Positions 8,025 to 64,000 are shown, counted from the stretch's first letter. The stretch: DNA of 64,000 nt from an uncultured Microthrixaceae bacterium (GCA_963845425.1 CAWJSC010000017.1:123843-187842), one strand, 5' to 3'. Numbers and translations are program-made. The notes: generated from the letters alone by a model not told the origin.

Positions 8025-8065
8025 GGGCGCCGAAGGTAGCCGTTGGGCCCGCGTAGGGTCTGGCC

Positions 8066-10306: not shown

Positions 10307-10327
10307 CCTCAGGTCACGGCGAGGAGC

Positions 10328-12118
10328 TCAGTCCCGCGCCCGGACCTCGTCCCACCAAGGTCCCAACGTGGCCAACCCCTCCCGATGACCGACCGCCACG
10401 AGCTCGTCGAAGCGGTCGAAGTCGAGAATGGGGAACTGCTCGACGTCAGGGCGCACCAGCACGTCGCCCCGGTCCGCCGTGTCGTGGCTGCCTCCGCCCA
10501 ACTCGGTCAGCCGGGCCAGGAGGGAGACGATGCCCACGATCTCGGGTGAACGGCGGCCGGGATGGATGCGGTCCACGAGGATCCGCCATCCCCCCATGAC
10601 CGTGGAGTCGGGGAGGTCGCCGGCCTGCAGCCCTCGACGCACCCCGACGTCGACCGCGATCGCGGTGATGCCGTCGTGGCCCCGCCGCATCTCGTCCACG
10701 GGCAGGTTGTCGACCAGGCCACCGTCGACGAGGACGTCGCCGTCCTGTGCCACGGGAGGGAACACCCCGGGGATCGACATGCTGGCCCGGATGGCCCGCC
10801 ACGCCAGGCCCCTTCGGTGCACCATCGGCCCCATCCGGGTGAGGTTGGTCGAGACGCAGAAGAAGTCCAGCCAGAGGTCCTCGATGTCCGCATCCCCGGC
10901 CGCGGCCTGCAACCGCTCCGAGATCCGCCGTCCGGAGGCGATCGAAGAGACCGGAAGCGTCAGATCGAGCGGGTTGGACTCGGTCACCATGCCCCGCCGG
11001 AGCACGTCGGCGACCCCGTCGATCGGCCAGCCCCGGGCGACGGCGCCGGCGACGAGGGAACCCGCGCTGGTCCCACCGATGGCATCGATCGGGATCCCGA
11101 GCTCGCCCATGGCGCGGATGACACCGATCTCGGCCATGCCCCGGGCGCCGCCGCCCGAGAGCACCAGACCCAGGCCCCGGTCGGTCAGGAGCCGGCCGAC
11201 CCGGGCGACGTCGCCGACGGCTCCTTCGCGGACGTGGTGGTGCCGACGCAGATCCCGGTCCACCAGCCACCGATGCGTGCCCGTCGGGACCTTCAGCTGA
11301 GGTGAGTGCACCAGGACCAGCTCGACGGCGACGGGCACCCGTCGGCGATGGTCGGCCAGCACCCGCTCCACAGGGGCAGGGACCGGTGGTCGAGCGCCGT
11401 CGCCCACGAGGAGCACCACATCGGCTTGGCGCAGACAGCGTCGGGTCCACTCGTCGTCATCCGTGCCCGCGAGGTAGAGCACGAGGTGGTGGTCGTGCTC
11501 GAGCGCGTTCAGCCACGCAGTGACCGACGGACCGGCCGGCGCGTCCTCGGCGGCGACGACGGCGAGCGACGGCATCGCGGTGGCCAGTTCCGTCGCCAGC
11601 ATCTCCACGAACCCGCGGCCGCGGTCACCCTCGTGGAGCACGACCGCGGCGATCGTGGCCACGGGGCGGACGGAGCTCTCCCCCGCCGAGATCTTGCGCA
11701 GGCGCTCGATGACCTGCCCGGCGATGGGACGGAGCAGCATCGGGGACTGGGCCAGCAGCTCCTCGAAGGCCTCCACCGAGAGGCGGAGCACGAGGGAGTC
11801 GCGAAGCGCCACCACCGTCGCCCCCCGGGGCCGCGCGGTGAGCAGCGCCGCCTCGCCGACGACTTCACCACGACCGGCCTCCCCGATCACCGTGAGATCG
11901 TCATCGGCGCCCAGCCGGGCCTGCAGCCGCCCCGAGAAGACCAGGTAGATGCCGTCGGCGGGGTCGCCCTCGCGGATGAGGACCTCGCCGCCCTGGACCA
12001 TCACCGTCTCGAGTCGGCCGGCCAGCAATTGCCGCTCCGCGTCGTCCAGGGCGCCGAACAGCTCGGACTCGGCCAGGAACGCCAGCACCTCCTCGGATGC
12101 CAGTTCGGCCTCGGCCAT
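10328..12118 (-). CDS. CNB-domain / patatin-like phospholipase fusion (NTE-family esterase type)
   Basis: 596 aa. N-terminal CNB domain (LFGALDDAERQLL...VVGEAALLTARPRGATVVA). Patatin motifs: SGGGARG, GTSAG (GxSxG), DGGLVDNLP. Confidence 0.9.
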   Translation of the reverse strand: MAEAELASEEVLAFLAESELFGALDDAERQLLAGRLETVMVQGGEVLIREGDPADGIYLVFSGRLQARLGADDDLTVIGEAGRGEVVGEAALLTARPRGATVVALRDSLVLRLSVEAFEELLAQSPMLLRPIAGQVIERLRKISAGESSVRPVATIAAVVLHEGDRGRGFVEMLATELATAMPSLAVVAAEDAPAGPSVTAWLNALEHDHHLVLYLAGTDDDEWTRRCLRQADVVLLVGDGARPPVPAPVERVLADHRRRVPVAVELVLVHSPQLKVPTGTHRWLVDRDLRRHHHVREGAVGDVARVGRLLTDRGLGLVLSGGGARGMAEIGVIRAMGELGIPIDAIGGTSAGSLVAGAVARGWPIDGVADVLRRGMVTESNPLDLTLPVSSIASGRRISERLQAAAGDADIEDLWLDFFCVSTNLTRMGPMVHRRGLAWRAIRASMSIPGVFPPVAQDGDVLVDGGLVDNLPVDEMRRGHDGITAIAVDVGVRRGLQAGDLPDSTVMGGWRILVDRIHPGRRSPEIVGIVSLLARLTELGGGSHDTADRGDVLVRPDVEQFPILDFDRFDELVAVGHREGLATLGPWWDEVRARD

Positions 12119-12179
12119 CGACGAGAAGGTAGAGGACGGCGCGCCCCGCCCGCGACCGCGGTCGGCCCAGGCCCTTCGC

Positions 12180-13793
12180 TCAGCGCCTCTCGGCGGCGAT
12201 GCTGCTGGCCACCCCGTGGGCTTGGGGCGTCCCGGTCAGCGCCTCGATGAAGTCGGCCCGCTCCAGTGTCCAGAGCTCTCCGGCCGTCCGGGCCTCGACG
12301 GTGGCGTTGCGGGGCTCGTCGAGGAGCAGCGCGACCTCACCGAAGGAGTCCCCCGGGCCCAACTCGGCCAGGGACCCCTCACCGCGACGGACGCCGAAGA
12401 CCCCCCGCTCGACGATGTAGAAGCGGTCCCCGACCTCACCCTCGGTGATGACCCGCTGCCCAGCGTCGACGCCGACGCGCTCGAGCCGCAGGGCCAGGCC
12501 CTCCATGGTCGCCGGGTCGAGGGCCCGGGTGATGGGCACCAGGCGTAGGAGGCCGAGTTGGCGCTCGGGGGCCGCCGTGCCCTGCTCCGCCCGACTGAGG
12601 ACCCACCCCGACACCAGGGCGGCCACCACGGTCGCGGCACCGATGATCGCGAACGCCTGGGGCACGGTGAACAAGGAGTCGAGGGGCGCGGCGATGACCG
12701 CCCCGACGAACGTCGAGCCGATGAAGGCGGCCTCCGCCAGTCCGAGGGCGCGGGTGAGCAACGGACCGGGGACGAGCCGCTGCAGGAGGGTCCGGGTGGC
12801 CAGATCGGCGACGGCGGCCGCGGTGGCGGCCACCATCAGGACGAGGACAGCTGCGGCGAGATCGGGGGCATAGCCGACCGTCGCCAGCACCGCCCCCCAC
12901 CCGACCAGACCCTGCGCCACCCAGCGACTCAGCCGGGCCCGACCGGCGAGGAGGCCGGCGGCGATCCCGCCGAGCACCAACCCGGCCCCGAGCCCGGCGC
13001 TGAGCCACCCCACGGCGGCGTCGCCGACGTCCAGCGTGTCGACGGCGAGCGGGACCACCAGCACGCGGGCGGCGCCCATCGCGACGTTGATGACCACGAT
13101 GCTCCCGAAGGCGGCCCGGGCGCCGGGGCCCTGGCGCAGGACGCGGAGGCCGTCGCGCAACTCGCTGCGGGCGCTGGCCGGAGAGCGGGTGAGGGCCGGT
13201 CGATGATGGTGGTGAAGGGTGGCCAGTCCCAGGCCGGCCGGTACGAGGAGGGCCGCGGCGATGGCGAACACCGCGCCCACGGACATCAGGGCCAGGACCA
13301 GCCCGGCCAGGAGGGGGGCCACCAGGCTGCCGATCCCCTCGGCGCTGGAGAGCACGGCGTTCGCCGCCGTGAGGTCCTCGGGACCGTCGGCCACCTCGGG
13401 CAGGAGGCTGCGGTGCAGCGGTCGGGTGGCCGCCACGATCACCGAGATCAGGGCGGCGGCCACGTAGGCGACGGCCGGGGGCCCGTCGGCGAGCAGGACC
13501 GCGGCGCCGGCCGCGCACGACAACCCGAGGGCGAGATAGCGGCGCCGAAGGAGAACGGCCGGACCGTGGCGGTCACCGGCCGTCGCCGCCAACGGCGCGA
13601 TCAGGGCGGAGGGTGCGAGTTGGATCGCGGCCACGAGCGCCACGGCACCGGTACCGCCCCGTTCGTAGGCGTAGACGAGAATGGCGATGTAGGTGCTCAG
13701 GTCGGCGACGACGAACACGACATAGGCCAGCGCCAGGCGGCGGAGGTCACGTGACTCCATGACCCGCCGCAGCGGGCTGTCTCGCGTGGCCAC
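12180..13793 (-). CDS. MFS transporter with C-terminal CNB domain
   Basis: 537 aa with about 12 hydrophobic segments. The C-terminus reads VPITRALDPATMEGLA...RFYIVERG...SFGEVALLLDEPRNATVEA. GTG 13793 is the track start; ATG 13760 (MESRDLRR...) is an alternative. Confidence 0.85.
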   Translation of the reverse strand: MATRDSPLRRVMESRDLRRLALAYVVFVVADLSTYIAILVYAYERGGTGAVALVAAIQLAPSALIAPLAATAGDRHGPAVLLRRRYLALGLSCAAGAAVLLADGPPAVAYVAAALISVIVAATRPLHRSLLPEVADGPEDLTAANAVLSSAEGIGSLVAPLLAGLVLALMSVGAVFAIAAALLVPAGLGLATLHHHHRPALTRSPASARSELRDGLRVLRQGPGARAAFGSIVVINVAMGAARVLVVPLAVDTLDVGDAAVGWLSAGLGAGLVLGGIAAGLLAGRARLSRWVAQGLVGWGAVLATVGYAPDLAAAVLVLMVAATAAAVADLATRTLLQRLVPGPLLTRALGLAEAAFIGSTFVGAVIAAPLDSLFTVPQAFAIIGAATVVAALVSGWVLSRAEQGTAAPERQLGLLRLVPITRALDPATMEGLALRLERVGVDAGQRVITEGEVGDRFYIVERGVFGVRRGEGSLAELGPGDSFGEVALLLDEPRNATVEARTAGELWTLERADFIEALTGTPQAHGVASSIAAERR

Positions 13794-14035
13794 GGGCCGG
13801 AAGGTAACGAGCGAGGACCGCCGAATCCCGGGCTGTCAGATGCTCTTCACCGGCCCGTAACGAACGGGCCGGCCGCCTGTCCCGGGGCCCCGTCGGGCCG
13901 GTCGACGGCCCCAGAGGAAACATCTCGGCCACAAACGTCTCATGGTCGCGACAGCACCGGGCGAGCGGGGCCGCGGGACTGTCGCTGCGGCCCGAAGCGA
14001 TGTACCTTCGAGCGCCAGATGCGGAAGGGAACCCC

Positions 14036-15376
14036 ATGAACATTCGTCTACGAGCACTGATCGCGGTCGCCGCGGTCATCACGATGGTTGCGGTCGGCCT
14101 GACGACGGGCGGCGGATCCGATGCGGGCGCGACGTCCGGTGACCTACAACCGCCGGAGGGATGCATCGACGTCAGTCCGGAGACCGGCGAGGTCGTCTAC
14201 AGCTGCACGATCCGAGGCCGGGCTTCTGCGCCTGCACCTCGGAACCTCCGACTACTTCCGGTTCGAGCCGGTGGGCCCCAGGACCGATCAACCAGGCGAT
14301 CAGCACCTCCGGTTGCCGGGCGACCCTGGCCACGGCGAACCGACTGGTGACCCTCACCCCCGGTCCGTCCGGAGCGACGCTCGGGCAGCGACGGGACAGC
14401 CTCGGGACCCAGTTCAACGAGGGGAACGGCGAACCGTGCGCCCAGGTCAACAACACGGGTACGAACGGTCAGAGCCTGGTCCTCTCGCTCGGCTCCGGCA
14501 TCGGCGTCGACGGCGCGCTCGTGGACTGGGCCGAGATCGATTTCGAACGCAAGTACGACGGTGTCGTCCGAGCCCAGTTCTTCGCGGGCGGCCCGCAGGG
14601 AACGTCGGTCGGCGAGCTGCTCCTCGGCTGCTCCGCCACCCTCAGCGACTGCGGGCCGGACTCCGGCGACGGTGACAACTTCCGGCTCGACACCCAGAAC
14701 CCGCCCGGCGGCCAGCCCTCGCCGGAGCCGTTCGACACGATCGTCCTCAGCCTCGACGCCTCGGGCCCGTCCAACGGGGCGTTCTCCCTCGAGGGCGGGG
14801 CCGACGGCACCGCACCGGGACCGGTCGGCTCGACCCTGTCGGTGAACCCCAACGACTCGCTCTTCCACGTGATCACCCGCGAGACGATCACCTACGACGG
14901 GACGCTCGACTGCACCGACACCGCCACCGTCGACGTGCCGAGCGACCCGGAGAGCCCGGCCACGAGCTCCACGCGTCACCCGTATGGAGAACAAGGACGG
15001 CGGCTGCGCGCTCGTTCCCTACACCCTCGAGGCCGGGTACGACGGCGACGGCGAGCAGACGGTGGACTTCATCGTGGACCTGACCGGCCAGGCGACCGCC
15101 GAATTCGAGTGGCGCGTGGAGTGGGACCCCGAGCCCGCCACCTACCCGCTCACCAAGACGACCTCGATCGACTTCGGTGACGGCCCCAACCCGTTGCAGT
15201 GGTGCGGCGGCACCTATGACCCCGACGGGGCCACGCCCGACGACCGGATGGCGGCCGTCGTCCCCATCAGCGGGTTGAGCGGGTGCCTCGCCTACCAGCA
15301 GCAGGTCCTGACCGGCGGCCAGGTCCAGGTGACCGAGGTGCTCCTGCTCAGCGACGACCCACGCGTGTCCCGCTAG
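14036..15376 (+). pseudogene. Secreted protein of unknown function, reading frame broken at least 3 times
   Basis: GGAAGGGA SD followed by ATG 14036. Signal peptide MNIRLRALIAVAAVITMVAVGL. High-GC3 coding signal hops frames at about 14205-14215, 14285-14295 and 14955-14983. The pieces fall in track ORFs 14000.., 14121.., 14161.. and 14984... The joined product has Cys pairs and no family I recognise. Confidence 0.55.
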
Positions 15377-15379
15377 GCG

Positions 15380-18300
15380 TCACCCGCTGAGCTCCAGCGA
15401 GGCGGGTGGGCGCGCCCCCAGACGGGACAGCAGCTCACCCGCCTCCTGCCGGGCACCCGGATCGTCCTCGGCGACGGCGGCCCGGGCCGAGAGGAGCATC
15501 GCCAGGTCGTAGACGAGCTCCTGGCGCCGCGCCGTGGCGATGCCCTCGTCGATGCGCTCGAGCCCGACTCGACGGACCCCGCCGCGGCCAGGGCCAGACC
15601 CTCCACCCGGGCCAGCGCAGCCTCGAACATCGCCGTCCCCTCGCCGGCCACGCGCTCGGCCTCGGTGAGCCGGGTCAGCGCGGCGGCCGGGTCGCCGGCC
15701 ACGAGGTCGCACTCGGCCCGGTAGATGGCGGCTTCGAGCAGGCTGCTGTCGAGCCCCATGTCGGCCACGTCCACCAGCACCTGGTCCAGGAGCCCGGTGG
15801 CCACGCCGAGGTCGCCGAGGGCGAGCCGGGCCCGGGCCAGGTTGATCTCCGCGTAGGTGGCACCGTCGACGAAGCCCGACGCCCGCAGCGTGCGCGCGGC
15901 CTCGGTCAGCGGCTTGACCGCGTCCTCGATCCGACCCTGACACACCCGGATCTCCCCCACGAAGGCGGTCGCCAGCGCCGACTGCACGGTGTCGCCGGTC
16001 CGCTCCGCGGCCGCTCGCGCCTGTTCGAGATGATCGAGGGCCCGATCCCAGTCGCCGACGTAGTAGAGCTCGAAGGCGAGGTTGTTGTGGACCTTGGACT
16101 GGCCCGTCAGGTCGCCCAACTCCTCGTAGATGGCGAGCGCCTCGAGCGTGTTCTGCTCGCCCGCGGGCCGACCGAGCATCCGGGTCATCCCGTCGATCAT
16201 CAGCAGGGCCTGGGCGAGACCCTCGAGCTCGCCTGCGGCGCGGGCCCCCGCCACGGCGTCCTCGGCCAGCCGCAGGCTGTCCGCCGGCCGCTCCTGGGCA
16301 CAGCGGATCCCGGATCGAAGCGCCAGAGCCCGGGCGGCGAGCCGGTCCGCCTCGACCGAGTCGACGTCGTCGAGCACGCTGACGACCTTGGCCGTGTCGC
16401 GCAGGGCGACGCTGAAGCGACCGGCCCGCTCGTAGGCCCGGGCCCGCTTGAGGATCGCGCCGGCCACCATCTCGGGGCCGACGGCCAGCCGGGCGGCCCG
16501 ACCGTAGGCGTCGAGCGCCTCGTCGAAGCGCGCGGATGCGAGGTGCACGTCGCCGAGGTGCGTCCAGACCTCGCCGAGCTCGTCGAGCCCGACGGTGCCC
16601 AGCCGCCGGGCCGCCGCGAGCGCCCATTCGTAGTGCGTCGCCGCCGCCATGTTGGCCGCCGCGTCCCGGGCCCGGTCACCGGCGAGCCGGGCGTAGGTCC
16701 ACGCCTCGGCGTACTGCTGGGCCCGGAAGTGGTGCAGCGACAGCAGGTCGACCATCCCGTCGAGGTCGTCGCCGCCGGCCTCGCGGGTGATCGTCGCCGC
16801 GCGCGCGTGCAACTGGCGTCGACGGGCGAAGGACAGCCTCTCGTAGGCCGCGTCGCGCACGACGGCCTGGCGGAACCGGATCCGATCGGGTTCCTCGGGT
16901 TCCAGGAACCGGGCGAGATCGTCGCGGGTCGCCTCATCGATGTGCACGGCGTCGTCGGCCAGCAACGAGTTCAAGGACGACAGCCGCATGCTCGTCCCGA
17001 GCACCGAGGCGTAGCGCAGGACCCGGTGGGGCAGAGGCCGCAGGGCGTCGATCTGGGTGCCGATCACCGCCTCCAGCGTCTCGGGGAGGTCGGCGCCGTC
17101 CGCGTCGCGACGGGCCTGGAGCAGCCCGTCGAGGTGCAGGGGGTTGCCGCCGGACTGCTCCACGAGGCGAGCCACGTCGTGGGGACGCAGCGGCGAGGCC
17201 GCGGTCGCCTCGTTGACCAGCGCGGTGGCGGCATCCTCCTCGAGCGGCGCCAGCTCGATGGTCACCGAAGAACCCAGCTCGACACCCGGCGTGTCGGAGC
17301 GGCGGGTGGCGATCACGAGCCAGCCCTGGTCGTGGGCGCGGGCGGCGATCCGCTCCACCAGGCCGACCGACGTGTCATCCAGCCAGTGGGTGTCCTCGGC
17401 CACGACCACCACCGACGACCCCGAGACGAGGCTCGCCAACTCGACGATGACGTCGGCCGTGCGGTCGGGCAGGAATCGGGGCTCGATGGCCCGGGACTCG
17501 GGGGTCGAGGCGACATCGATGTGGGCGACCCGGGCCACGAGCGGCAGGAGCGGTTCGAGATGGGGGGCGAGCGTCCGCACCCGGTCGCGGAGCGCGGCCT
17601 GTTGGGCCTCCGGGCCCCCTGCTCCCGCCCCCAGGATCCGCCGCACCGGGTCACGGAAGGCCCGGTAGGGCATGGCGCTGCCGTAGGACTCGCCGCGGAT
17701 GGTGACGACCGGCATCGAGAGGCCGGTCGTCACCTCGTCGACCAGCCTCGACTTGCCCGCCCCCACCTCACCCACGAGTTCGATCACGCCGCCGACCCCG
17801 TCGGACACGAGTCGGTCCAGCGCGGTCTGCACGACGGCCAGTTCGGCGTCGCGGCCCACGAAGGGCAGCTCCTCGCTCGGCGGGTCTTGGCGATCACCGA
17901 CCTCACCGCCCACCGCGTAGGCGTGGACCTTGGCGGACTTGCCTTTGACCGCGAACGGCTCGAGCTCGACGGTCTCGAACACGGTCGCCGACCGGTCGAG
18001 CACGGCCGGGGTGGCGTAGAGCTCACCCGGCGGGGCCGCGGCCATCAGCCGGGCCGCCAGGTTCACCGTGTCGCCCATGACGGTGTAGGCGGAGCGGAAG
18101 GGCGCGCCGATCTCGCCGGCGAAGACATGGCCTCGATTGACGCCGATCTTGATCGGGAGGGTGGTCGGGGCATCGACGACGGCCCGCAGGGCCCGCAGCA
18201 TCCGCCGCTCGTCCTCCTCCACCGCGATCGGCACCCCGGCGGTGAGGATGAACTTGCCGCCGTCGGCGTCGATGTCGGAGGCGAGGAAGCAGATCCCCTG

Positions 18301-19161
18301 GCGCTCGGCCGCGTGCTGCACGACCCGGGTCACCTCGTCGAGGGCGGCGGCCACCGCATCGGGCCCGAGCCGGTCGTGCAGCTCGTCGACGCCCTTGTAC
18401 TTGACGAAGGCCACGACGCCGACGCGGTGCTCGGGCTCGACCTCACCGGTCTGCAGGTGGCCGCGCAGGCCGACCGGGATGCAGCGCACCACCGCTTCGA
18501 TCGGAACGGCGCGGCGGGTGCGAGGGCCGACGGGAGCCACCGGCGGCTTGCGCCACTTCAGGATCCAGCCGTCCCCCTTGGCGACGGTGGCCGCGCCCCG
18601 GGGGAGGGCGTCGCGGACGGCGGTGCTGACCACGATCTCCCCGGCGTCGGCCGTGCCCTCCATCTCGATGGTCCCGGTGGCGCCGGGGCCGGTGATGATC
18701 AGCTCCCGGTGGGAGTCGCCCACCAGGTAGGCGTGCATGGTGCCGGTGTGGAGGCCGATCGACATCTTCAGCGGTACCCGCCCGACCGAGGTGGCGATCC
18801 GAGCCGACTCCCGCAGCGCGGCCCGCATCTCCACCGCGGCCCCGCAGGCCTGCACCACGTGTCCGTCGCCGCGGAACAACAGGAGCAGGGCGTCGCCGCC
18901 GAACTTGACGAGGTTCCCGCCGCGCTCGTGGGCGAGCGAGATCATCGACCCGAACACCCGCCGGAGGACCTCGGTCAGCTCCTCGGCGCCGATCCGGCCC
19001 CGGGCGGCCAGCTTCTCGGAGAGGTTGGTGAAGCCGGAGATGTCGACGAAGCACATCGTCGCGTCGAGCTCCCGGTGGAGGGCACCCGGCGTGTCGAGGT
19101 CCCATTCCGCGGCGACAGCCGGCACGTAGCGGATCGCCGCACCACCGGTGTCCTCGCTCAC
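15380..19161 (-). CDS. Tandem class III adenylate/guanylate-cyclase domains + AAA/STAND ATPase + TPR-like repeats (one apparent frameshift near the 3' end)
   Basis: CHD1: FVDISGFT...KFGGDALLLLF. CHD2: ...GVNRGHVFAGEIG...YTVMGDTVNLAARL. P-loop: GEVGAGKSRL. Long helical-repeat C-terminus. After about 15560-15575 the plausible sequence continues in the frame of track ORF 15380..16627 (...GLERIDEGIATARRQELVYDLAMLLSARAAV...LELSG*). Confidence 0.85.
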
Positions 19162-19237
19162 CCGCGACCCGCTCCCGGCACGACCACCATTGTGGCGTGC
19201 CTCCGGGAGGGTGGTGATCGCGGGTGCTCGACCGGGC

Positions 19238-21031
<1,794 letters not shown>

Positions 21032-21305
21032 GCGACATGCACCGGGCCGACCGTAGCCAAGCGGGGCCTGCCGGACACCCGAGTCGTTCGCTGTCCCCGT
21101 CGATCTCGTGCGCCCCGTGACCGTCCGGTCCCTGGTCCCGGGCCGGTGGCGTGACGACCGATGCGGGTCGGGCCCGCCGGTAGGGTCCGCGCCGTCCCGT
21201 TCGTCCTGAATGGGCCCGAAAGGCGCATCGCATGACGGCAGTGCTCCCCCGCATGGTTCGGCTGTTCCTCGTAGCGCGGCTGACGGCCACCGGCGGGACT
21301 GACCC

Positions 21306-22685
21306 GTGGAGCGACTGAGCGGGCTGGATGCCAGCTTCCTGTACACCGAGTCGCCCACGGTGCATCTCCACACCCTGAAGATCGGGGTGATCGACCCGGC
21401 TGCCGCACCGGGTGGGTACGACTTCGAGCGCTTCGTCGACGTCCTCGAGGAGCGGCTCCCCCTGCTGCCTCCGTTCCGGCGCCGCGTGGTCCGGGTGCCG
21501 TTCGGCCTGCACCACCCGGTCTGGATCGAAGACGCCGACTTCGACATCCGTCGTCACGTGCGCCGGGTCCGCGCCCCCGCCCCGGGCGGGTCCCGGGAGC
21601 TGGATGCCTGCATCGCCGAGGTGGCGTCCACCCCGCTGCCCCGCGATCGCCCGCTCTGGGAGATCTGCGTCGTCGAGGGCCTGGCCGACGGCCGCGTGGG
21701 CTTCGTGGCCAAGCTGCACCACGCGGCCGCCGACGGGCTGGCGGCGGCCCGGCTGCTGGCCAACGTCATGACCCCGAGCGCGGAGAGCTCCGTCGCGGTC
21801 CCGACCCCGGCACCGCCTTCCTGGATGGGGGAGCCGGTGCCGGGCCGCCGACGGCTGCTGGCCGACGCCATCGCCGACCTCGGCCGACTGGCAATGGCCC
21901 TGCCCGCGCTGCTGGTCCGCACGCTCGGGCGGTTGCCGGGGGTCCTGCGGGCCCGCCGCCAGGCGACCGACCCTCCGCCCGGGGCCTTCGCCGGTCCCGC
22001 GACGTCCTTCAGCCGTGCGCTGACCGCCCGACGGGCGTTCGCGTCCTGTGCCCTGCCCCTCGATGACCTCCGGCAGGTCAAGGCCGCCTTCGGCGTCACC
22101 ATCAACGACGTGGTCCTCGCGTGTGTCGCCGGCGCCCTGCGGGCCCATCTCCTCGCCGGCGGCGAGCCCGTCGACCGACCGCTGGTCGCTTCCGTGCCGG
22201 TGTCGACCGACGCCGCGGACACGTCGCGCCTCATCGGCAACCGGACGTCGAACCTCCTGACGGCGCTGCGGGTGGACCTGGCCGACCCGGCCGAGCGCCT
22301 GCGCGCCACGGGAAGGCTGTCGGCGTCCGCCAAGGCCATCCAGGAGGCCCTCGGCGCCGAGACGATGGCGCAGTGGGTCGAGTACGCCCCGCCGGTCGTG
22401 TTCCGCCTGATCTGGCGCCATCTGGTTCCCCGGATCCGCCGGCCCCCGGTGAACGCCATCGTCTCCAACGTCACCGGGCCTCGGGAGCCGCTGTTCATCG
22501 CCGGGGCCGAACTGGTGGCGCTGCAGAGCGTCGGTCCGCTGCTGGAGGACGTCGGCCTGAACGTGACGGTGTGGAGCTACTGCGGCTCGATGCAGGTCGC
22601 GGTCCTGTGTTGTCCCGACACGCTGCCGGACCCCTACGTCATCACCGACGGCATGCGCGCCGCCCTCGCTGAGCTCCTGGCCTGA
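21306..22685 (+). CDS. Wax-ester synthase / diacylglycerol acyltransferase (WS/DGAT) family, copy 1
   Basis: 459 aa. LSGLDASFLYTESPTVHLH. Active-site-type HHAAADG. C-terminal PLFIAGAEL...GPLLEDVGLNV. Confidence 0.9.
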   Translation: MERLSGLDASFLYTESPTVHLHTLKIGVIDPAAAPGGYDFERFVDVLEERLPLLPPFRRRVVRVPFGLHHPVWIEDADFDIRRHVRRVRAPAPGGSRELDACIAEVASTPLPRDRPLWEICVVEGLADGRVGFVAKLHHAAADGLAAARLLANVMTPSAESSVAVPTPAPPSWMGEPVPGRRRLLADAIADLGRLAMALPALLVRTLGRLPGVLRARRQATDPPPGAFAGPATSFSRALTARRAFASCALPLDDLRQVKAAFGVTINDVVLACVAGALRAHLLAGGEPVDRPLVASVPVSTDAADTSRLIGNRTSNLLTALRVDLADPAERLRATGRLSASAKAIQEALGAETMAQWVEYAPPVVFRLIWRHLVPRIRRPPVNAIVSNVTGPREPLFIAGAELVALQSVGPLLEDVGLNVTVWSYCGSMQVAVLCCPDTLPDPYVITDGMRAALAELLA

Positions 22686-44356: not shown

Positions 44357-46717
44357 ATGGCATGGTTCCGGGCTGCGAAGCTGACCCCGATGACCCACGC
44401 CGCGGACCGCCCCCTCCGGCGCTCGAGCGAGGCGGTGCTGCTGTGGGTGGCGCTGGCCGGGCTGGCGCTCGGCACCGTCCTGCACCTGGCCGGGCAGGCC
44501 GACGCCGGTGACGCCGTCTGGGCGGTGACCGCCGGCCTCGGGGTGGTGGCGTCCACGGGCTGGGTCCTCGGCGCGGCACGACAGGGTCGCCTCGGCGTCG
44601 ACCTCCTCGCGGTGGTCGCCCTGATCGGCACGCTCGCGACCGAGGAGTACGTCGCCGGGGCGGTGATCACCGTGATGCTGGCCAGCGGCCGGACGTTGGA
44701 GGCCCGGGCCGCGGCCCGGGCCCGCCACGACCTGAGTGCGTTGCTCGAACGGGCACCCCGGGTGGCGCACCGGTACGAAGCCGGCGAGTTGACCTCACCG
44801 AAACTGGCCGCGGTCGTCCCCGGTGACCGGCTCCTGGTCCAGCCCGGTGAGGTCGTCCCGGTGGACGGGCTGGTCGAGGGTGAGCCCGCGGTGCTCGACG
44901 AGTCGGCCCTGACCGGCGAGCCACTGCCGGTCGAGCGGGGCGAGGGTGACCCTGTGCGCAGCGGGGTGATCAACGCGGGAGGCCCCTTCGACCTCCGAGC
45001 GACCACCACGGCCGACGACAGCACCTACGCCGGCATCGTGCGCCTGGTCGCCGACGCCGAGGCCTCGAGTGCTCCGTTCGTCCGATTGGCCGACCGGTAC
45101 GCCTCGGTCTTCCTCGTGGTCGGCTTCGCCGTGGCCGGCGCCGCCTGGCTCCTGTCCGGGGACCCGGTACGGGCGGTCGCCGTGCTGGTCGTGGCCACTC
45201 CCTGCCCGCTCATCCTGGCCGCTCCGGTGGCCATCGTCTCGGGCCTGTCCCGGGCGGCCAAGCGGGGCGTGGTGATCAAGGGTGGGGCTGCCCTGGAGAA
45301 GCTGGCTGACGCCGAGGTCCTGCTCTTCGACAAGACGGGGACCCTCACCCGGGGTCGACCGACCGTGGCCGAGATCGTGCCGGTGGACGCCGAGCGCATC
45401 GGCCCCGACGAGGTCCTCCGTCTCGCCGCCTCGCTCGACCAGGTCTCACCACACGTGCTCGCCGGGGCCGTGGTCCGGGCGGCCCGAAGCCGCGACCTGG
45501 CGCTCACGCTGCCCTCGGATGTCCACGAGCGCCCGGGTCAGGGCGTCGCCGGGCAGGTCGAGGGCCAGGTGGTCGAGGTCGGCAACGCGAACTGGATCCT
45601 CCCTGGTGCCCCGCCACCCTGGGCCCACGCCGTGCGCAGGCGGGCCGACCTCGACGGGTCCCTCACCGTGTTCGTACGGGTCGACGGCGAGCCGGCTGGC
45701 GCGATCGTCCTCGACGACCCCATCCGCCCCGACGCGGCCCGTACCATCCGGCGCCTCCGCCGGGGCGGGGTGCGCCGGGTGGTCATGGTCACCGGCGACC
45801 GGGCCGACGTGGCCCAGACCGTGGGCGCGGTCATCGGGGTCGACGAGGTGCTGGCCGAGCGCAGCCCCGGAGAAAAGGTGGAGGCGATCCGGGCGGAGGG
45901 CGACCGCCACACGATCATGGTCGGCGACGGGATCAACGATGCCCCGGCCCTGGCCCTGGCCGATGTGGGGGTGGCCATCGGGGCCCGAGGGGCCACCGCC
46001 TCGTCGGAGGCCGCCGACGTCGTCCTCACCGTGGACCGCCTCGACCGTCTCGGCGATGCCATTGCCATTGCCCGGCGGTCCCGGGACATCGCCCGGCAGA
46101 GCGCTCTCGCCGGCATGGGCCTGTCGTTGGTGGCGATGGGGGTCGCCGCGTTGGGGTACCTACCGCCGGCCTGGGGGGCGCTGCTCCAGGAGCTGATCGA
46201 TGTCGCGGTCATCCTCAACGCGCTCCGGGTCCTGCAGGTGCCGGGGAGCGAGACCCGGGTGAACGCGGCAGAGGAAGCGCTGGTGCACCAGTTCAGCGGT
46301 GAGCACCGCACCCTGCGGCCTGATCTCGATCGGCTCCGGGTCGCCGCGGACCAGATCGGCGTCGTCGCCCCCGACCGGGCGCTGGCCCTGGTGCGCCAGG
46401 TGCACCGCTTCCTCGTGGAGGACCTCCTGCCCCACGAAGAGGCCGAGGACGCCATCCTCTACCCGGTGTTCGCGAGGGTCCTCGGCGGTCACGACCCGAC
46501 CGGCACGATGAGCCGGGCCCACGTCGAGATCGCCCACCTCGTCCGTCGTATCGGCCGGCTGCTCGACGAGGCGGATCCCGCGCATCCCGACCCCGACGAC
46601 CTGCTGGAGCTCCGCCGGGTCCTCTACGGCCTGCATGCCATCCTCGAGCTGCACTTCGCCCAGGAGGACGAGGGCTATCTCTCCCTGGTCGACGAGCCCG
46701 ACGACCACGTCGAGTGA
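44357..46717 (+). CDS. P1B-type heavy-metal ATPase with TPCP membrane motif and C-terminal hemerythrin-like domain (P1B-5-like)
   Basis: 786 aa. Motifs: DKTGTLT, GDGINDAPAL, VVATPCPLILAAP. No N-terminal HMA domain. The C-terminal 150 aa carry HEEAEDAILYPVF and HFAQEDEGYL (HHE/hemerythrin-like). Confidence 0.9.
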   Translation: MAWFRAAKLTPMTHAADRPLRRSSEAVLLWVALAGLALGTVLHLAGQADAGDAVWAVTAGLGVVASTGWVLGAARQGRLGVDLLAVVALIGTLATEEYVAGAVITVMLASGRTLEARAAARARHDLSALLERAPRVAHRYEAGELTSPKLAAVVPGDRLLVQPGEVVPVDGLVEGEPAVLDESALTGEPLPVERGEGDPVRSGVINAGGPFDLRATTTADDSTYAGIVRLVADAEASSAPFVRLADRYASVFLVVGFAVAGAAWLLSGDPVRAVAVLVVATPCPLILAAPVAIVSGLSRAAKRGVVIKGGAALEKLADAEVLLFDKTGTLTRGRPTVAEIVPVDAERIGPDEVLRLAASLDQVSPHVLAGAVVRAARSRDLALTLPSDVHERPGQGVAGQVEGQVVEVGNANWILPGAPPPWAHAVRRRADLDGSLTVFVRVDGEPAGAIVLDDPIRPDAARTIRRLRRGGVRRVVMVTGDRADVAQTVGAVIGVDEVLAERSPGEKVEAIRAEGDRHTIMVGDGINDAPALALADVGVAIGARGATASSEAADVVLTVDRLDRLGDAIAIARRSRDIARQSALAGMGLSLVAMGVAALGYLPPAWGALLQELIDVAVILNALRVLQVPGSETRVNAAEEALVHQFSGEHRTLRPDLDRLRVAADQIGVVAPDRALALVRQVHRFLVEDLLPHEEAEDAILYPVFARVLGGHDPTGTMSRAHVEIAHLVRRIGRLLDEADPAHPDPDDLLELRRVLYGLHAILELHFAQEDEGYLSLVDEPDDHVE

Positions 46718-57509: not shown

Positions 57510-58877
57510 TCACACCACCCTCACGTTGCGGGCCTCGTCACCTTTTCGACCCTGGGCGATCTCGAACGACACCTGCTCGCCCTCGTCGAGGACTCCGCCG
57601 GTCACGGTCACGTTCGTGTGGTGCACGAACAGGTCATCGCGGCCCGGCACGGCGATGAAGCCGAAGCCGCGGCGGGTGTCGAAGAACTTCACCGTACCGG
57701 TCGGGCCACCGCTTTTCCGACCACCGTGAGGGCGCTCGGCCCGGGGCCGCGGGGGCTGGGTGTCGAGGGCTCCGGGGGCCGTGATGTCGCCCGGAAGACC
57801 CAGCTTGCGCTGCATCTTGCGGTTGTCGGACAGCTCCTCGCTGCGCACGAGGGAGACCACGACGCCGGTGGCGCCGGCCCGCGCGGTGCGGCCGGATCGA
57901 TGCAGGTAGGTCTTCTCGTCCTCGGGCGGATCGAAGTGCAGCACGCAGGCCACACCGTCGACGTGGATGCCCCGGGCGGCCACGTCGGTGGCCACCAAGG
58001 CGTCCACCCGGCCCTTGACGAAGGACTCGAGGGCCCGGTCCCGCTGACCCTGGGAACGGCCGCCGTGGATGGCCGCGGCCTTCACGCCGCTCTTGGTCAG
58101 CTGCTGGGTCAGACGGTCGGCGCCGCGCCGGGTCCGGCAGAAGACGATCGTCGGGCCGGCGTCCTTGATGGCGTCGACGGCGTGGTCCTTGCGGTCCATG
58201 TGGGCCACCTTCCAGAACAGGTGCCGGGCCGTGGTGATGTCGGGCTCGACGTCACCCACCTCGTGGCGGGTGGGGTTGTTCTGGTAGCGGTCGGTGACCA
58301 CTTTGACGTCGCCGTCCAGGGTGGCCGAGAAGAGCACCGTCTGACGGTCGTCTGGGGTGGCGTCCAGCAGGCGCTTGACCGCGGGCAGGAAGCCCATGTC
58401 GGCCAGGCGGTCGGCCTCGTCGATCACGACGATCTCGATGTCGGAGAGATCGACGTCCCGGGTCTGGATCAGGTCCTCGAGGCGGCCGGGGCAGGCCACC
58501 AGCACGTCGACGCCCTTGCGCAGCGCGCTGCGCTGGCCGCCGTAGCCGACCCCGCCGTAGACCGACACGGCCCGACGCTTGCGGAGGGCGAGCAGGGGGC
58601 TGAGCTCCTTGTGGATCTGCTCGGCCAGCTCGCGGGTGGGGGACAGGACCAGGGCGCGGGGGCGACGGGGCGTGCCCTTGCCGACGCGAGCGGCCAGGGG
58701 GATGCCGAAGGCCAGCGTCTTGCCCGAGCCGGTGGGGGCGCGGCCACAGACGTCGCGTCCGGCCAGCAGATCCGGGAGGGTGGACTCCTGGATGGGGAAC
58801 GGCTCGTTGATGCCCTTGTGGGCAAGGGTGCGCACGACGTCCTCGGGCACGCCGAGATCGGCGAAGGAGGGGGACAT
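57510..58877 (-). CDS. DEAD-box RNA helicase fused to a C-terminal cold-shock domain
   Basis: 455 aa from ATG 58877. Motifs: F...PIQ, APTGSGKTLAF, VIDEADRL (DEAD), SAT, HRSGRTARAG. The last 65 aa are GTVKFFDTRRGFGFIAVPGRDDLFVHHTNV...EGEQVSFEIAQGRKGDEARNV (CSD RNP motifs). Confidence 0.9.
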   Translation of the reverse strand: MSPSFADLGVPEDVVRTLAHKGINEPFPIQESTLPDLLAGRDVCGRAPTGSGKTLAFGIPLAARVGKGTPRRPRALVLSPTRELAEQIHKELSPLLALRKRRAVSVYGGVGYGGQRSALRKGVDVLVACPGRLEDLIQTRDVDLSDIEIVVIDEADRLADMGFLPAVKRLLDATPDDRQTVLFSATLDGDVKVVTDRYQNNPTRHEVGDVEPDITTARHLFWKVAHMDRKDHAVDAIKDAGPTIVFCRTRRGADRLTQQLTKSGVKAAAIHGGRSQGQRDRALESFVKGRVDALVATDVAARGIHVDGVACVLHFDPPEDEKTYLHRSGRTARAGATGVVVSLVRSEELSDNRKMQRKLGLPGDITAPGALDTQPPRPRAERPHGGRKSGGPTGTVKFFDTRRGFGFIAVPGRDDLFVHHTNVTVTGGVLDEGEQVSFEIAQGRKGDEARNVRVV

Positions 58878-59067
58878 GGGGGTACTGCTCCTGACTGCCC
58901 GCTTCGAGGCGGGCCGGCGCACGGGTGCGCCGCGGATCGAAACGGTGGAGAGGCGATCCAGCCGGAACGGGGGTGTATGGGGGGATGCCGTACCGGGGAG
59001 CTTCGTTGTGAACCTTGCCTCCACCCGGTGGCAGCGGCCCAGGGTATCGGCCCGGCCCCTGCCTTCC

Positions 59068-60470: not shown

Positions 60471-62708
60471 ATGGTGAACGACGTCACCCACCTGCGTACC
60501 TGCCCGTTGTGCGAGGCCATGTGTGGCCTCGAGGTCACCGTGCGGGACGACCACGTCTCCCTCATCCGGGCCGACCGGGAGGACGTGTGGAGCCAGGGCT
60601 ACCTGTGCCCCAAGGGCACGACCCTCGGTCACCTCCACGAGGACCCCGACCGGCTGCGGGCCCCGCTGATCCGGGACGGTGACGGCTTCCGGGAGGTGAG
60701 CTGGCCGGAGGCGTTCGCCGAGGTGGAGCGCCTGCTCGCCCCGGTCCTGGCCGAGGACGGCGTCGACGCCGTGTCCTGCTACATCGGCAACCCGACGGCG
60801 CACAACTTCTCCCTCGGCCGCTACGCCGGGGCCTTCGTGCCGATGAGCGGCATCACCCAGCTCTATTCGGCGGGCACGGTCGACCAGTGGCCCAAGAACG
60901 TGGTGGCCACGCTGCTGTACGGGGGCATGTGGGACATCCCGGTGCCGGACCTGGACCGGGCGGACTTCGTCCTCATGCTCGGGGCCAACCCGGCCGCCAG
61001 CCAGGGCAGCCTCATGGCCTGTCCGGACGTGCTCGGGCGCATCGACGCCATCCGGGAGCGGGGTGGCCGCGTCGTGGTCGTCGACCCTCGCCGCACGAAG
61101 ACGGCCGACCGGGCGGGGGAGTGGGTGCCCGTCCAACCCGGTACCGACGCCCTCCTGCTGATGGCCATGGTCCAGGTGCTCTTCGCCGAGGGCCTGGTCG
61201 ATCTCGCCCACCTGGCCCCCCTGGTCGACGGCGTCGACGAGGTGGCCCGGCTGGCGACGCCCTTCACCCCGGAGGCGGTCGCGGCCGCCACCCGCGTCCC
61301 CGCGGACACCATTCGGGGCCTCGCCCGCAGCCTGGCCGCGGCCCCCGCGGGCGTCGTCTACGGGCGCATCGGCACCTGCAACCAGGAGTTCGGAACCCTG
61401 GCCTCCTGGCTGGTCGAGGTCCTGAACATCCTGACGGGCAACCTCGACCGCCCGGGTGGCTCCATGTTCGCCGACCCGGCGAGCTGGTCGATCATCTCGG
61501 TCCGGCCGCCGGACCAGGCCGACGGTTGGGCCTTCAACCGGTGGACCAGCCGGGTGCGGGGCGCGCCCGAGGTCCTGGGGCAGTACCCGGTGTCCTGCCT
61601 GGCCGAGGAGATCGCCACACCGGGTGACGGCCGCATCCGGGCGCTGGTCGTGATCGCCGGCAACCCCGTCATCTCCGCCCCCGACAGCGACCGGCTCGAC
61701 GCCGCCCTGCCCCAGCTCGAGGCCATGATCTCGATCGACAACTGGCTGAACGAGACCAGTCGCCATGCCCACGTGATCCTCCCGGGGCTGTCGGCGCTCG
61801 AACAGCCCCACTACGACGACCTCCTCTGGGGCTTCGCCACCCGCAACGCGGCCAACTTCTCCGAGGCCGTCTTCCCGCCTCCGCCGGACCGGCCCGCGGA
61901 GTGGGAGATCCTCCTGCGGGTGGCGGCCATCATCGGCGGCACCGCCGCGGTCGACGTGGATGTCGAGGGCTTCGACGACGGCTACTTCATGGGGGTGGTG
62001 ATGGCCAACCAGGCCCAGCCCGGCTCCCGCATCGCCGATCACGACCTGGCCGAGGTCCTCGAGGCGACGCCCGGCCGAGGCCCGGAGCGGATCCTGGACT
62101 TCGGGCTACGGGTCGGTCCCCACGGCGAGGGCTACGGGCGAGACCCCGACGGCCTGAGCCTCGCCAAGCTGCGGGAGCACCCCCACGGCATCGACCTCGG
62201 TCCGCTCGAGCCCCGCCTGCCGGGGATGCTGACCAGTCCCGGCCGACGCATCGACCTGGCCCCCGGCTACATCACCGGCGACCTCGACCGGCTGTCGGCC
62301 CGGATCGAGCGGGGCGACGAGGGCCTGGTGCTGGTCAGCCGCCGTCACCTCCGGTCCAACAACTCCTGGATGCACAACGTGAAGGTCCTGGTGAAGGGCA
62401 AGGACCGCTGCACGCTGGAGGTCAACACCGACGACGCCGAGCGCCTCGGCCTGGTCGACGGGGCCCGCGCCCGGATCAGCTCCGAGGCCGGCTCACTCGA
62501 GGTCCCCGTCGAGGTCACCGACACCATCACCGCCGGGGTGGTGTGCCTGCCCCACGGCTGGGGCCACGACAAGGAGGGAACCCGGCTGGCGGTGGCCCGC
62601 GAGCACGCCGGGGTCAACAACAACGTGCTGGCCCCAGGTCACCTGGTCGACGTCCTCAGCGGCAACGCCGTGGTCAACGGCATCCCCGTCGAAGTATCCG
62701 CACTCTGA
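60471..62708 (+). CDS. Molybdopterin-dependent oxidoreductase (formate-dehydrogenase-like MopB family)
   Basis: 745 aa. N-terminal 4Fe-4S motif CPLCEAMCG...CPKG. Typical MopB core and a C-terminal molybdopterin dinucleotide-binding segment (...GVVCLPHGWGH...). Confidence 0.9.
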   Translation: MVNDVTHLRTCPLCEAMCGLEVTVRDDHVSLIRADREDVWSQGYLCPKGTTLGHLHEDPDRLRAPLIRDGDGFREVSWPEAFAEVERLLAPVLAEDGVDAVSCYIGNPTAHNFSLGRYAGAFVPMSGITQLYSAGTVDQWPKNVVATLLYGGMWDIPVPDLDRADFVLMLGANPAASQGSLMACPDVLGRIDAIRERGGRVVVVDPRRTKTADRAGEWVPVQPGTDALLLMAMVQVLFAEGLVDLAHLAPLVDGVDEVARLATPFTPEAVAAATRVPADTIRGLARSLAAAPAGVVYGRIGTCNQEFGTLASWLVEVLNILTGNLDRPGGSMFADPASWSIISVRPPDQADGWAFNRWTSRVRGAPEVLGQYPVSCLAEEIATPGDGRIRALVVIAGNPVISAPDSDRLDAALPQLEAMISIDNWLNETSRHAHVILPGLSALEQPHYDDLLWGFATRNAANFSEAVFPPPPDRPAEWEILLRVAAIIGGTAAVDVDVEGFDDGYFMGVVMANQAQPGSRIADHDLAEVLEATPGRGPERILDFGLRVGPHGEGYGRDPDGLSLAKLREHPHGIDLGPLEPRLPGMLTSPGRRIDLAPGYITGDLDRLSARIERGDEGLVLVSRRHLRSNNSWMHNVKVLVKGKDRCTLEVNTDDAERLGLVDGARARISSEAGSLEVPVEVTDTITAGVVCLPHGWGHDKEGTRLAVAREHAGVNNNVLAPGHLVDVLSGNAVVNGIPVEVSAL

Positions 62709-62743
62709 CGCTCTGACCAGGAGAACTGCTGCGGAGTCGTAGC

Positions 62744-62890
62744 GGAGCAGCGCTGCCACCAGTTCGCCGATAGCTGCCGTAGGCAGCAGGAGCCGCGCAG
62801 GCGGCGACGAGGAATAGGGAGCAGCGCTGCCAATCGTTCGCCGATAGCTGCCGTCGGACAGCTTGGCCTCGCCGCGCAGGCGGCGACGAG
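62744..62890. repeat. Tandem direct repeat, 2 copies of about 74 bp, each with internal palindromes/hairpins, in a convergent intergenic region
   Basis: Both copies share three blocks: GGAGCAGCGCTGCCA (contains palindrome GCAGCGCTGC), TTCGCCGATAGCTGCCGT and GCGCAGGCGGCGACGAG (hairpin GCCGC-GCAG-GCGGC). The segments between them are divergent. Stop codons in several frames argue against coding. Confidence 0.75.
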
Positions 62891-62901
62891 AGATACAGAC
62901 C

Positions 62902-63396
62902 TCAGCCGTAGCGGGCGCCGCACCGGGGCCAGTGGCCGAGGCCGGAGGCGACGCGGACCCGTTCGGCCACCCGGGCCTGCCTCCAGGCCTCCTTCTGGTG
63001 GGGCATGCCGCTGCCGCCATAGGCCTCCCAGGTCCCCATGGAGAACTGCAGGCCGCCGTAGTGGCCGTTGCCGGTGTTGATGTGCCAGTTGCCGCCGCTC
63101 TCACAGTCGGCGACGCCCTGCCAGCGGTTCACCAGGGCCCGGCGCTGGCGGTTGACCTCGAGCTGGTACAGGTACGCCCGCAGGTTCCGGGCCTCGCGCT
63201 GGTAGGCGGTCCAGGTGTGGCCCGCGGTGCCCTGCCCGCCGAGGAACTGGCGGTGGCCGTGGTCGGCGTGCAGCCGGGCGATGTACTCAGCGTTGATCGT
63301 CGTGGCGCGGCCGGCCCCGGCGGTGCCGGCGCCGGTGGCCAGGGCCACCGCCGGCAGGGCGAGGGTCAGCAGGGTGAGCAGCACGATGCGGCGCAT
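62902..63396 (-). CDS. Secreted resuscitation-promoting-factor (Rpf)-like transglycosylase
   Basis: ATG 63396: MRRIVLLTLLTLALPAVALA signal peptide. C-terminal CESGGNWHINTGNGHYGGLQFSMGTWEAYGG is the Rpf-domain signature. Confidence 0.85.
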   Translation of the reverse strand: MRRIVLLTLLTLALPAVALATGAGTAGAGRATTINAEYIARLHADHGHRQFLGGQGTAGHTWTAYQREARNLRAYLYQLEVNRQRRALVNRWQGVADCESGGNWHINTGNGHYGGLQFSMGTWEAYGGSGMPHQKEAWRQARVAERVRVASGLGHWPRCGARYG

Positions 63397-63608
63397 GTTG
63401 TGGGGTGAGCCTCCTGGCGGCACCACCACGCGCGCGAGAAGCACGGCTGCGGGGGGAGGGAGTCGCCTGTCGGACCTGCGCTCGATGTGGTCGCGCCTGC
63501 GAATCGCCGGTTATCGGCGCACTCAGCAGGGGCCGTCGGCGCGGGCACTGTTCTTGGTCGTTGCCAACAGTGTCGTCATATTCGTCACCCAATTGAAACT
63601 TGCACCCG

Positions 63609-63644
63609 TGTGACTTGTGTCACTCACCTGTGACCGGCGTCACA
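63609..63644. promoter_or_regulatory. Two adjacent CRP/GlxR-type sites (TGTGA-N6-TCACA)
   Basis: TGTGACTTGTGTCACT (63609-63624, 9/10 half-site match) and TGTGACCGGCGTCACA (63629-63644, 10/10). Both sit in a low-GC stretch about 215-250 nt upstream of the rpf-like start. Confidence 0.55.
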
Positions 63645-63648
63645 ACGC

Positions 63649-64000
63649 TCAGCCGGGAACGGTGCGCAGCGGGGGCCCGTCGAGGGGGCAGCAGAGGTCG
63701 GCCGGGGCGGCGTCGGCCGCCTCCGGGCCGGGGCCGGTCAGCGAGACGAGGGCCACGACACCGGAGGACGCGGCCAGCCCGCCGGCGATCAGCAGGGCGG
63801 TTTGGAAGCCCTCGGTGAAGGCCGCCGGGTCGCCGAAGTCGTCGGCCGCGATGCCGGCCAGTCCGGGTAGGGCGGCCACGGCGAGGAGGCCGGCGGTCCG
63901 AGCCACCGTGTTGTTGACGCCGGACGCGATCCCGGCGTGACGCTCGTCGGCGGAGGCCAGCACGGTGGCGGTGAGCGGGGCCACCGTGGCCACGAGGCCG
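63649..64000 (-). CDS. MFS (DHA2/EmrB-QacA-like) transporter, C-terminal part only (5' end beyond window)
   Basis: The frame is open to the window edge: ...GLVATVAPLTATVLASADERHAGIASGVNNTVARTAGLLAVAALPGLAGI...LLIAGGLAASSGVVALVSL. This resembles the last TM helices of a 14-TM MFS. Confidence 0.7.
   Translation of the reverse strand, partial: GLVATVAPLTATVLASADERHAGIASGVNNTVARTAGLLAVAALPGLAGIAADDFGDPAAFTEGFQTALLIAGGLAASSGVVALVSLTGPGPEAADAAPADLCCPLDGPPLRTVPG

Follow-up and report, generated by a model that had tools for sequence, protein, structure and literature searches.

Tandem CRP-type sites and a covarying leader stem-loop upstream of an rpf gene in uncultured Microthrixaceae

St-Onge et al. 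reportedly described, in 2015, Crp and ppGpp inputs to rpfA of Streptomyces coelicolor. In S. coelicolor and other Streptomyces, ydaO c-di-AMP riboswitches are found in the 5' leaders of rpfA and of further cell-wall hydrolase genes (PMC10117811). In Mycobacterium tuberculosis, rpfA is activated by CRP(Mt) (Rv3676) according to the papers that cite the original report (Rickman et al., 2005, cited in PMC2844151, PMC4117774), and whiB1 of the same species has tandem CRP sites 21 bp apart, of which the one at -58.5 is activating and the one at -37.5 repressing (PMC2844151). Three regulators, GlxR, RamA and RamB, are cited for rpf2 of Corynebacterium glutamicum (Jungwirth et al., 2008, in PMC3917453).

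We analysed a 64,000-nt stretch of DNA from an uncultured Microthrixaceae bacterium, hereafter the window, in which a 252-nt intergenic region (63397-63648) separates two genes that are both on the minus strand. Taken jointly with the mechanism set out below, this is probably the regulatory region of a Microthrixaceae rpf gene. The genes and the two palindromic sites are as follows.

62902..63396, minus strand: rpf-like gene, ATG at 63396 and stop at 62902, encoding a 164-aa protein in which a signal-peptide-like N-terminus and some 85 uncharacterised residues precede the C-terminal Rpf domain
63649..64000, minus strand: 3' end of an MFS transporter gene, co-directional with and upstream of rpf, with the stop codon TGA at 63651-63649
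63629..63644 (read 63644-63629): CRP-type site 1, TGTGACGCCGGTCACA, TGTGAC-GCCG-GTCACA, a perfect TGTGA-N6-TCACA (10/10)
63609..63624 (read 63624-63609): CRP-type site 2, AGTGACACAAGTCACA, AGTGAC-ACAA-GTCACA, a 9/10 match

The gene had been called rpf-like in the original prediction, correctly so because the 164-aa ORF contains a transglycosylase-like (Rpf) domain (PF06737, E 7e-26 in Pfam) and its residues 91-164 align to the solved domains of RpfE, RpfC and RpfB in the PDB (E ~1e-21), with the catalytic CESGGNW motif intact in the alignment to RpfE (4cge). Its orthologues, about 40 in number, are 163-165 aa long, and the closest genomes are metagenome-assembled genomes (MAGs) of uncultured Microthrixaceae (Acidimicrobiia), in which the Rpf proteins are 65-93% identical. 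The upstream gene is identified as an MFS transporter because its 3' coding end is homologous to that of an orthologous locus (L001, see below) whose full ORF matches MFS_1. On the other side of rpf, the gap to a convergent molybdopterin oxidoreductase gene is filled by two tandem hairpin-rich units (62744-62895) with a period of 74-79 nt and an identity of 90-92%, the place of which is taken by an FG-GAP repeat gene in three of the orthologous loci (L006, L010, L022). Elsewhere in the window, two domain fusions were recorded, a DEAD-box helicase with a C-terminal cold-shock domain (57510-59024) and a P-type ATPase with a C-terminal hemerythrin domain (44357-46717).

The two palindromes, one perfect and one matching at 9/10 positions, were found as originally described, 4 nt apart and 213-248 nt upstream of the rpf ATG; their centres are separated by 20 bp, and the stop codon of the MFS gene lies 4 nt ahead of site 1. 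In the entire 64 kb of the window, no other sequence matches with one mismatch or fewer. The pair is far beyond chance because shuffled sequences give just 0.64 such matches for the whole window, and by a rough estimate the chance of two matches within 36 bp of one intergenic region is <1e-3. In the window as a whole, TGTGACNNNNGTCACA with up to three mismatches is under-represented (9 occurrences vs 23.5 ± 5 in shuffles), and the rpf operators are the only good matches among the TGTGACNNNNGTCACA-like sequences. The half-site TGTGA is of the CRP type with G at position 4 in all lineages, which rules out an operator of the Cmr/CooA type, TGTCA-N6-TGACA (PMC4705688), with C at this position. The molybdopterin oxidoreductase gene has a third sequence of the form GTGA-N6-TCAC (60474-60487, GTGAACGACGTCAC) that overlaps its start codon (60471). 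L001, L002 and L004 share this sequence, which may reflect mere coding constraint (MVNDVTH) or be a CRP-type site over the start codon.

Orthologous loci were collected from a genome scan (L001-L004, on the MAG contigs CAVPAN010000010.1, CAVZRY010000015.1, CAVSIG010000002.1 and CAVVIF010000008.1), from exact-protein look-ups of diverse orthologues (L005-L011, L022, L023) and from a metagenome scan (L015-L021), for which the query was a 21-base pattern from the invariant block beside site 2 that includes the right half-site. The metagenome matches that reach the gene start all lie 200-217 nt upstream of an rpf orthologue; L017 ends before it. Both sites are kept in 10 of the 14 distinct lineages, at a fixed distance of about -226 and -246 from the ATG, and L009 has one full site, shifted by ~12 bp. 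Where both sites are present (10 lineages), GTGAC...GTCACA never varies, nGTGACACAAGTCACA of site 2 is always kept, the central 4 nt of site 1 take six forms (GCCG, ACCG, CGGG, GACG, GGCC, GGGC), and the 4-nt gap between the sites varies in sequence and is constant in length except in L019, where it is 3 nt. With half-sites that do not change and a site 1 centre and inter-site gap that do, the palindromes are best read as the phylogenetic footprint of a two-fold symmetric dimer. In every locus examined, such sites were found only upstream of this rpf orthologue, with no further ones in the 2.5-6.5 kb of each orthologous locus or elsewhere in the window.

The comparison of orthologues also identified a clade (L003/L010 and L023) from which the sites have been lost. 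In L003 (2751-2800) and L010, ~35 bp have been cleanly deleted, starting immediately behind the MFS stop codon and ending midway through site 2, and L023 (1900-1925) contains a decayed operator remnant, GCGACAAATCACA; the right half-site of site 2 persists even in this clade. The sites are dispensable there, because everything else has been retained without them: the leader stem-loop, the block that contains the core promoter, and the synteny with a cyclase gene. The rpf reading frame is broken in the MAG-derived loci L002, L004 and L011, probably by assembly indel errors, and single-base indels in these leaders are thus not to be trusted. Two further Rpf homologues with 53-58% identity, in L012 (1345-1827) and L013 (2001-2498), are without CRP-type sites or leader element and lie among many short genes without Pfam matches, in what looks like a phage-like context.

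Between the sites and the leader, the following elements were delineated.

63593..63604, minus strand: most conserved block, the near-palindrome TGCAAGTTTCA, consensus TGAAA-G-TTTCA (TGAAAGTTTCA), identity 0.86-0.90
63598-63593, minus strand: -35-like TTTCAA inside this near-palindrome
63574..63588, minus strand: direct repeat GTGACG-AAT-ATGACG, consensus GTGACG-N3-GTGACG with a 9-bp period (alignment A3)
63569..63574, minus strand: best -10 candidate GACACT (pattern GAnAnT), 18 nt after TTTCAA
63551..63562, minus strand: invariant box AACGACCAAGAA, consensus ACCGACCAAGAA, which starts exactly 7 nt after the -10 candidate, identity 0.85

Conservation is highest from the right half-site of site 2 to position 63574 (pairwise identity 0.83-0.90), with AAGTT.C..TT invariant in the near-palindrome block (alignments A2 and A3). 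Positions G, A2, A4 and T6 of GAnAnT are invariant in 15 of 15 aligned lineages, in which the element takes the forms GACACT, GATACT, GACAAT, GAGAAT, GAAACT and GATAAT. The 6-7 nt that follow vary more than any other part of the core region, as a discriminator would, and conservation resumes with the ACCGACCAAGAA box exactly at the predicted +1 (63562). We infer that the promoter is TTTCAA-N18-GACACT, with a start at ~63562 and the 5' end of the mRNA at the ACCGACCAAGAA box. This would place the centres of sites 1 and 2 at ~-74.5 and ~-54.5, positions that differ from the optima in E. coli (-41.5, -61.5, -71.5), and would give a leader of ~166 nt, shorter than the 200 nt or more originally proposed. 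Both hexamers are weak matches, with G instead of T at position 1 of the -10 candidate, and a sigma-70 scan found no promoter at the rpf upstream region. The patterns of ECF, SigF and SigD-like promoters did not fit by eye, and an alternative promoter, GTGaAA-N16-GAAnAT, was ranked second since its -10 element is less conserved than GAnAnT.

The near-palindrome TGCAAGTTTCA could be either the -35 element or a second operator. The GTGACG repeat, situated between the -35-like and -10-like elements, is also present in lineages listed as being without CRP-type sites (L003, L009, L020), and both elements (63574-63604) are kept even in the clade that lacks them. Neither element matches a known motif; together, TGAAAGTTTCA and the repeat suggest at least one further regulator, or unusual promoter elements.

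The locus shares with M. tuberculosis rpfA an Rpf-domain muralytic gene with an upstream CRP-type TGTGA-N6-TCACA, in a setting where cAMP is tied to resuscitation and growth. The mycobacterial gene belongs to the Mycobacteriales and has one reported site, whereas the locus described here is from the Acidimicrobiia, is known from sequence alone, and has two adjacent high-quality sites; the encoded protein is also of a different paralogue type, with 164 aa and an uncharacterised N-terminal region. As in whiB1, two adjacent CRP sites lie on one helix face, with a spacing of 20 bp instead of 21 bp. A repressing role for the proximal site, as at -37.5 in whiB1, is not implied here, because both sites appear to lie upstream of the -35 region. 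The likeness to C. glutamicum rpf2 is that of an rpf promoter which integrates a CRP-type regulator with others; here, TGAAAGTTTCA and the GTGACG repeat hint at more inputs, but these extra elements match no motif that we can name. With S. coelicolor rpfA, the locus has in common a long structured 5' leader and, putatively, a cyclic-nucleotide-dependent transcriptional input; there the leader is of the ydaO class, whereas here no ydaO motif was found and an unbranched, lineage-specific stem-loop is present instead.

Every relative with enough flanking sequence has a gene for a class III adenylate/guanylate cyclase (PF00211) upstream of rpf, either directly (L005-L008) or in the order cyclase, MFS transporter, rpf (L001, L009-L011, L022); in several loci the cyclase has a PF16701 regulatory domain as well. 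In the window's own locus, the cyclase would fall beyond base 64000. This conserved neighbour fits control by cAMP and CRP, of the kind reported in the literature for rpfA of M. tuberculosis and rpf2 of C. glutamicum. No CRP-type regulator (cNMP_binding with HTH) was identified among the ~40 window ORFs that were scanned; the cNMP-binding proteins among them are without HTH. The window also contains a cluster of cyclic-nucleotide genes (7050-21547), no member of which has a CRP-type HTH.

7050-7493 and 7602-8024: small cNMP-binding proteins
10328-12118: patatin-cNMP protein
12180-13793: MFS-cNMP fusion
15373-19161: cyclase-AAA-TPR protein, 1262 aa
19238-21547: metallo-beta-lactamase-GAF protein

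In the explanation that we consider the most probable, and that we hold with some confidence, a dimeric CRP/GlxR-type regulator would bind each of the two adjacent operators (GTGAC-N4-GTCACA), and the bound pair, ~54.5 and ~74.5 bp upstream of the start at ~63562, would raise transcription of rpf from the promoter at ~63562-63598 when cAMP rises. Activation is the most likely outcome because the sites are at upstream positions (-54.5/-74.5); alternatively, the response may be graded or biphasic, on the model of the tandem whiB1 sites in M. tuberculosis. The linked class III adenylate cyclase is a plausible source of the cAMP. The resulting mRNA would have a 5' leader of ~166 nt, in which the ACCGACCAAGAA box comes first and is followed by a 73-nt stem-loop that would add control after transcription has started. 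The features of the leader are listed below.

63474..63546, minus strand: unbranched stem-loop of 73 nt with ~29 base pairs
63572-63546, minus strand: hairpin CACUGUUGG...CCAAGAACAGUG of the original prediction
63474-63467, minus strand: segment UCCGACAG, originally likened to the conserved 3' core of ydaO
63451..63467, minus strand: GGCGACUCC (consensus GGCGGCUCC) followed by a C/U-rich tract, identity 0.81
63410..63421, minus strand: GCCGCC and, directly after it, the Shine-Dalgarno sequence AGGAGG (63415-63410), 13 nt upstream of the ATG

The leader contains a covarying stem-loop and not a ydaO riboswitch. The stem-loop is imperfect, 66-79 nt long, and follows directly on the ACCGACCAAGAA box in every orthologue; a covariance model recovered it exactly once in each locus and nowhere else in the window. 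Its base helix differs by lineage (GCC/GGU, UCCUGAC/GUCAGGA, UCCUGAG/CUCAGGA, UCCCGG/UCGGGA), and the z-scores of its minimum free energy range from -1.3 to -4.9 in 11 lineages, with values of -1.9 or below in 9 of them. In a plain MAFFT alignment, 80.8% of the cells were pairing vs 73.9 ± 1.1% in shuffled alignments (0/500 reached the observed value), changes on both sides occurred at 12 of 29 pairs (reached by 2/500 shuffles), and the covariation score was 0.186 vs 0.116 for shuffled and 0.05-0.09 for slid controls; these numbers, like those of the second alignment, are for sequences related to each other and for a structure that was derived from the window sequence, with boundaries set after viewing the folds. 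In an alignment made with the covariance model, the corresponding values were 85.6% vs 75.9 ± 1.1% (0/500), 14 of 29 pairs (0/500), and 0.244 vs 0.115 for shuffled and 0.03-0.08 for slid controls. Folding is about equally good for the antisense strand, and the assignment to the sense strand rests on context and on 19 G-U cells.

No Rfam family matches the stem-loop in the window or in 12 orthologous loci, and across the orthologues it has no invariant loop or bulge nucleotides and no multi-helix junction. On its 3' side there is no U-run, and CCGACAGGCGAC comes next. It is not an intrinsic terminator or attenuator, because a U-tract is missing, and we read it as a structural element rather than an aptamer because invariant loop nucleotides, a junction and a U-run are all absent. 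Its role is most likely to be exerted after initiation, in mRNA stability or processing or as the target of a protein or an antisense RNA. The element is previously undescribed and lineage-specific, with a distribution limited to one gene family in one bacterial family.

An antisense sRNA reportedly acts on the rpfA leader of Streptomyces (work of St-Onge and Elliot from 2017). A reading compatible with CRP control, and one that we regard as possible rather than probable, is that rpf expression is controlled mainly at the stem-loop rather than at the operators, the stem-loop being either a new regulatory RNA that senses a ligand or a protein, or a target for antisense RNA. The covariation, the invariant single-stranded flanks ACCGACCAAGAA and GGCGGCUCC, the ability of the antisense strand to fold well and the retention of the element even in the clade without operators would all fit. 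The lack of conserved loop and bulge nucleotides and of a multi-helix junction, and the length variation of 66-79 nt, are however unlike ligand-binding aptamers; there is no consistent pairing with the Shine-Dalgarno sequence, no U-tract by which it could act as an intrinsic attenuator, and the distribution is narrow. Equally tentative is the suggestion that the stem-loop and its two flanks together make up an undescribed cis-regulatory leader RNA, which in Microthrixaceae would take the place of the ydaO riboswitch of Streptomyces rpf leaders, respond to a small molecule, a protein or an antisense RNA, and form a second layer over cAMP-CRP.

Other proposals for the leader were examined in the same alignments. 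The long hairpin CACUGUUGG...CCAAGAACAGUG does exist in the window but is not maintained in more distant orthologues, where its 3' arm reads AGAAGAGCU (L006, L011, L009, L003, L020, L022, L023) with no compensating change; its 5' arm overlaps the best -10 candidate. The CCUCC sequence (63459-63455), put forward as an anti-Shine-Dalgarno element, is part of the conserved C/U-rich tract, but its pairing with the Shine-Dalgarno sequence is inconsistent; the predicted partners of the latter differ among orthologues, and the sequestration model was dropped. GCCGCCAGGAGGC is invariant in the 14 sequences of alignment A3 and is also present in L023, with ACCGCC in L022. RNAalifold, run on the MAFFT leader alignment, gave a covariation term of +0.75 and paired GGCGGC with the GCCGCC beside the Shine-Dalgarno sequence, a pairing that is uninformative because these pairs hardly vary and never do so with a compensating change. 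The stability of the whole leader is like that of shuffled sequence (z = -0.09), only the sub-domain being stable. A leader peptide is ruled out by indels of 1-4 nt between orthologues that break any frame, and a terminator of the upstream gene by the missing U-run and by the position of the hairpin downstream of the conserved promoter-like block; a terminator scan found no terminator-like site in 62600-64000.

It is also conceivable, and in our view unlikely, that the palindromes are bound by another regulator than a cAMP-responsive one, either a member of the CRP/FNR family that does not use cAMP or an MtrA-like response regulator. Paralogues in the CRP family can share near-identical motifs (PMC4705688), and MtrA-like regulators, which recognise GTCACA-type repeats and are known to control cell-wall hydrolase genes, have as their motif a direct repeat of GTCACAgcg in mycobacteria and GTnAcC-n5-GTnAcn in Streptomyces (PMC13189361, PMC2945938). 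GTCACA occurs four times here, twice per strand, in addition to the conserved direct repeat GTGACG-N3-GTGACG at 63588-63574. However, the spacing of GTCACA on the same strand is 20 bp and the period of GTGACG is 9 bp, as compared to ~11 bp for MtrA (PMC13189361), and the conservation of both halves of each 16-bp inverted repeat around a variable centre argues for a symmetric dimer and not for direct-repeat binding. Position 4 of the half-site is that of CRP (G) and not that of Cmr (C), and the conserved adenylate cyclase neighbour points to cAMP.

That the palindromes are due to chance or are purely structural, for example as the terminal part of the transcript from the upstream gene, and play no part in regulation is very improbable: the sites do begin 4 nt after the MFS stop codon and one clade is without them, but their position is fixed to the rpf ATG and not to the upstream stop, which belongs to a cyclase gene in L005-L008 and lies ~290 nt (L005) or ~125 nt (L006-L008) above the sites, the half-sites are invariant although the Rpf proteins are only 66-93% identical to that of the window, and no terminator-like feature is present.

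The architecture of ydaO is branched and pseudo-two-fold symmetric, with conserved junction nucleotides. Dual control of rpf by cAMP and, through a ydaO-class riboswitch, by c-di-AMP, as for Streptomyces rpfA and in keeping with a long and partly conserved leader, is scarcely credible, since neither RF00379 nor any other Rfam family gave a match at E<=10 in 62600-64000 even with permissive filters, no Rfam family reached its gathering score anywhere in the 64-kb window or matched at E<=1 in 12 orthologous loci, the supposed core UCCGACAG varies freely among orthologues (CCUACAG, CCUACCG, CCAGACG, CCAAGCG), and what is conserved structurally is one hairpin that has no branches and no conserved nucleotides in loops or junctions. 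The riboswitch half of the original prediction thus falls away, whereas its CRP half gains from the conservation of the sites, the cyclase neighbour and the published precedents, which are consistent with control by cAMP.

Under the preferred reading, in which a CRP/GlxR-type dimer pair would act on the tandem operators, the locus extends a known theme. CRP-family control of rpf has already been documented in Mycobacterium and Corynebacterium, and what is new here is its probable occurrence in Microthrixaceae, in another class of the Actinomycetota. The same logic in this deep-branching and mostly uncultured family, with a linked cyclase, points to an old and widespread control of resuscitation and growth enzymes by cAMP in the Actinomycetota. 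The locus also cautions against taking every long leader of an rpf gene for a c-di-AMP riboswitch, and the covarying stem-loop is a concrete candidate RNA element. Microthrixaceae matter in the bulking of activated sludge, and a defined circuit from cAMP to rpf would offer a handle on their dormancy and regrowth.
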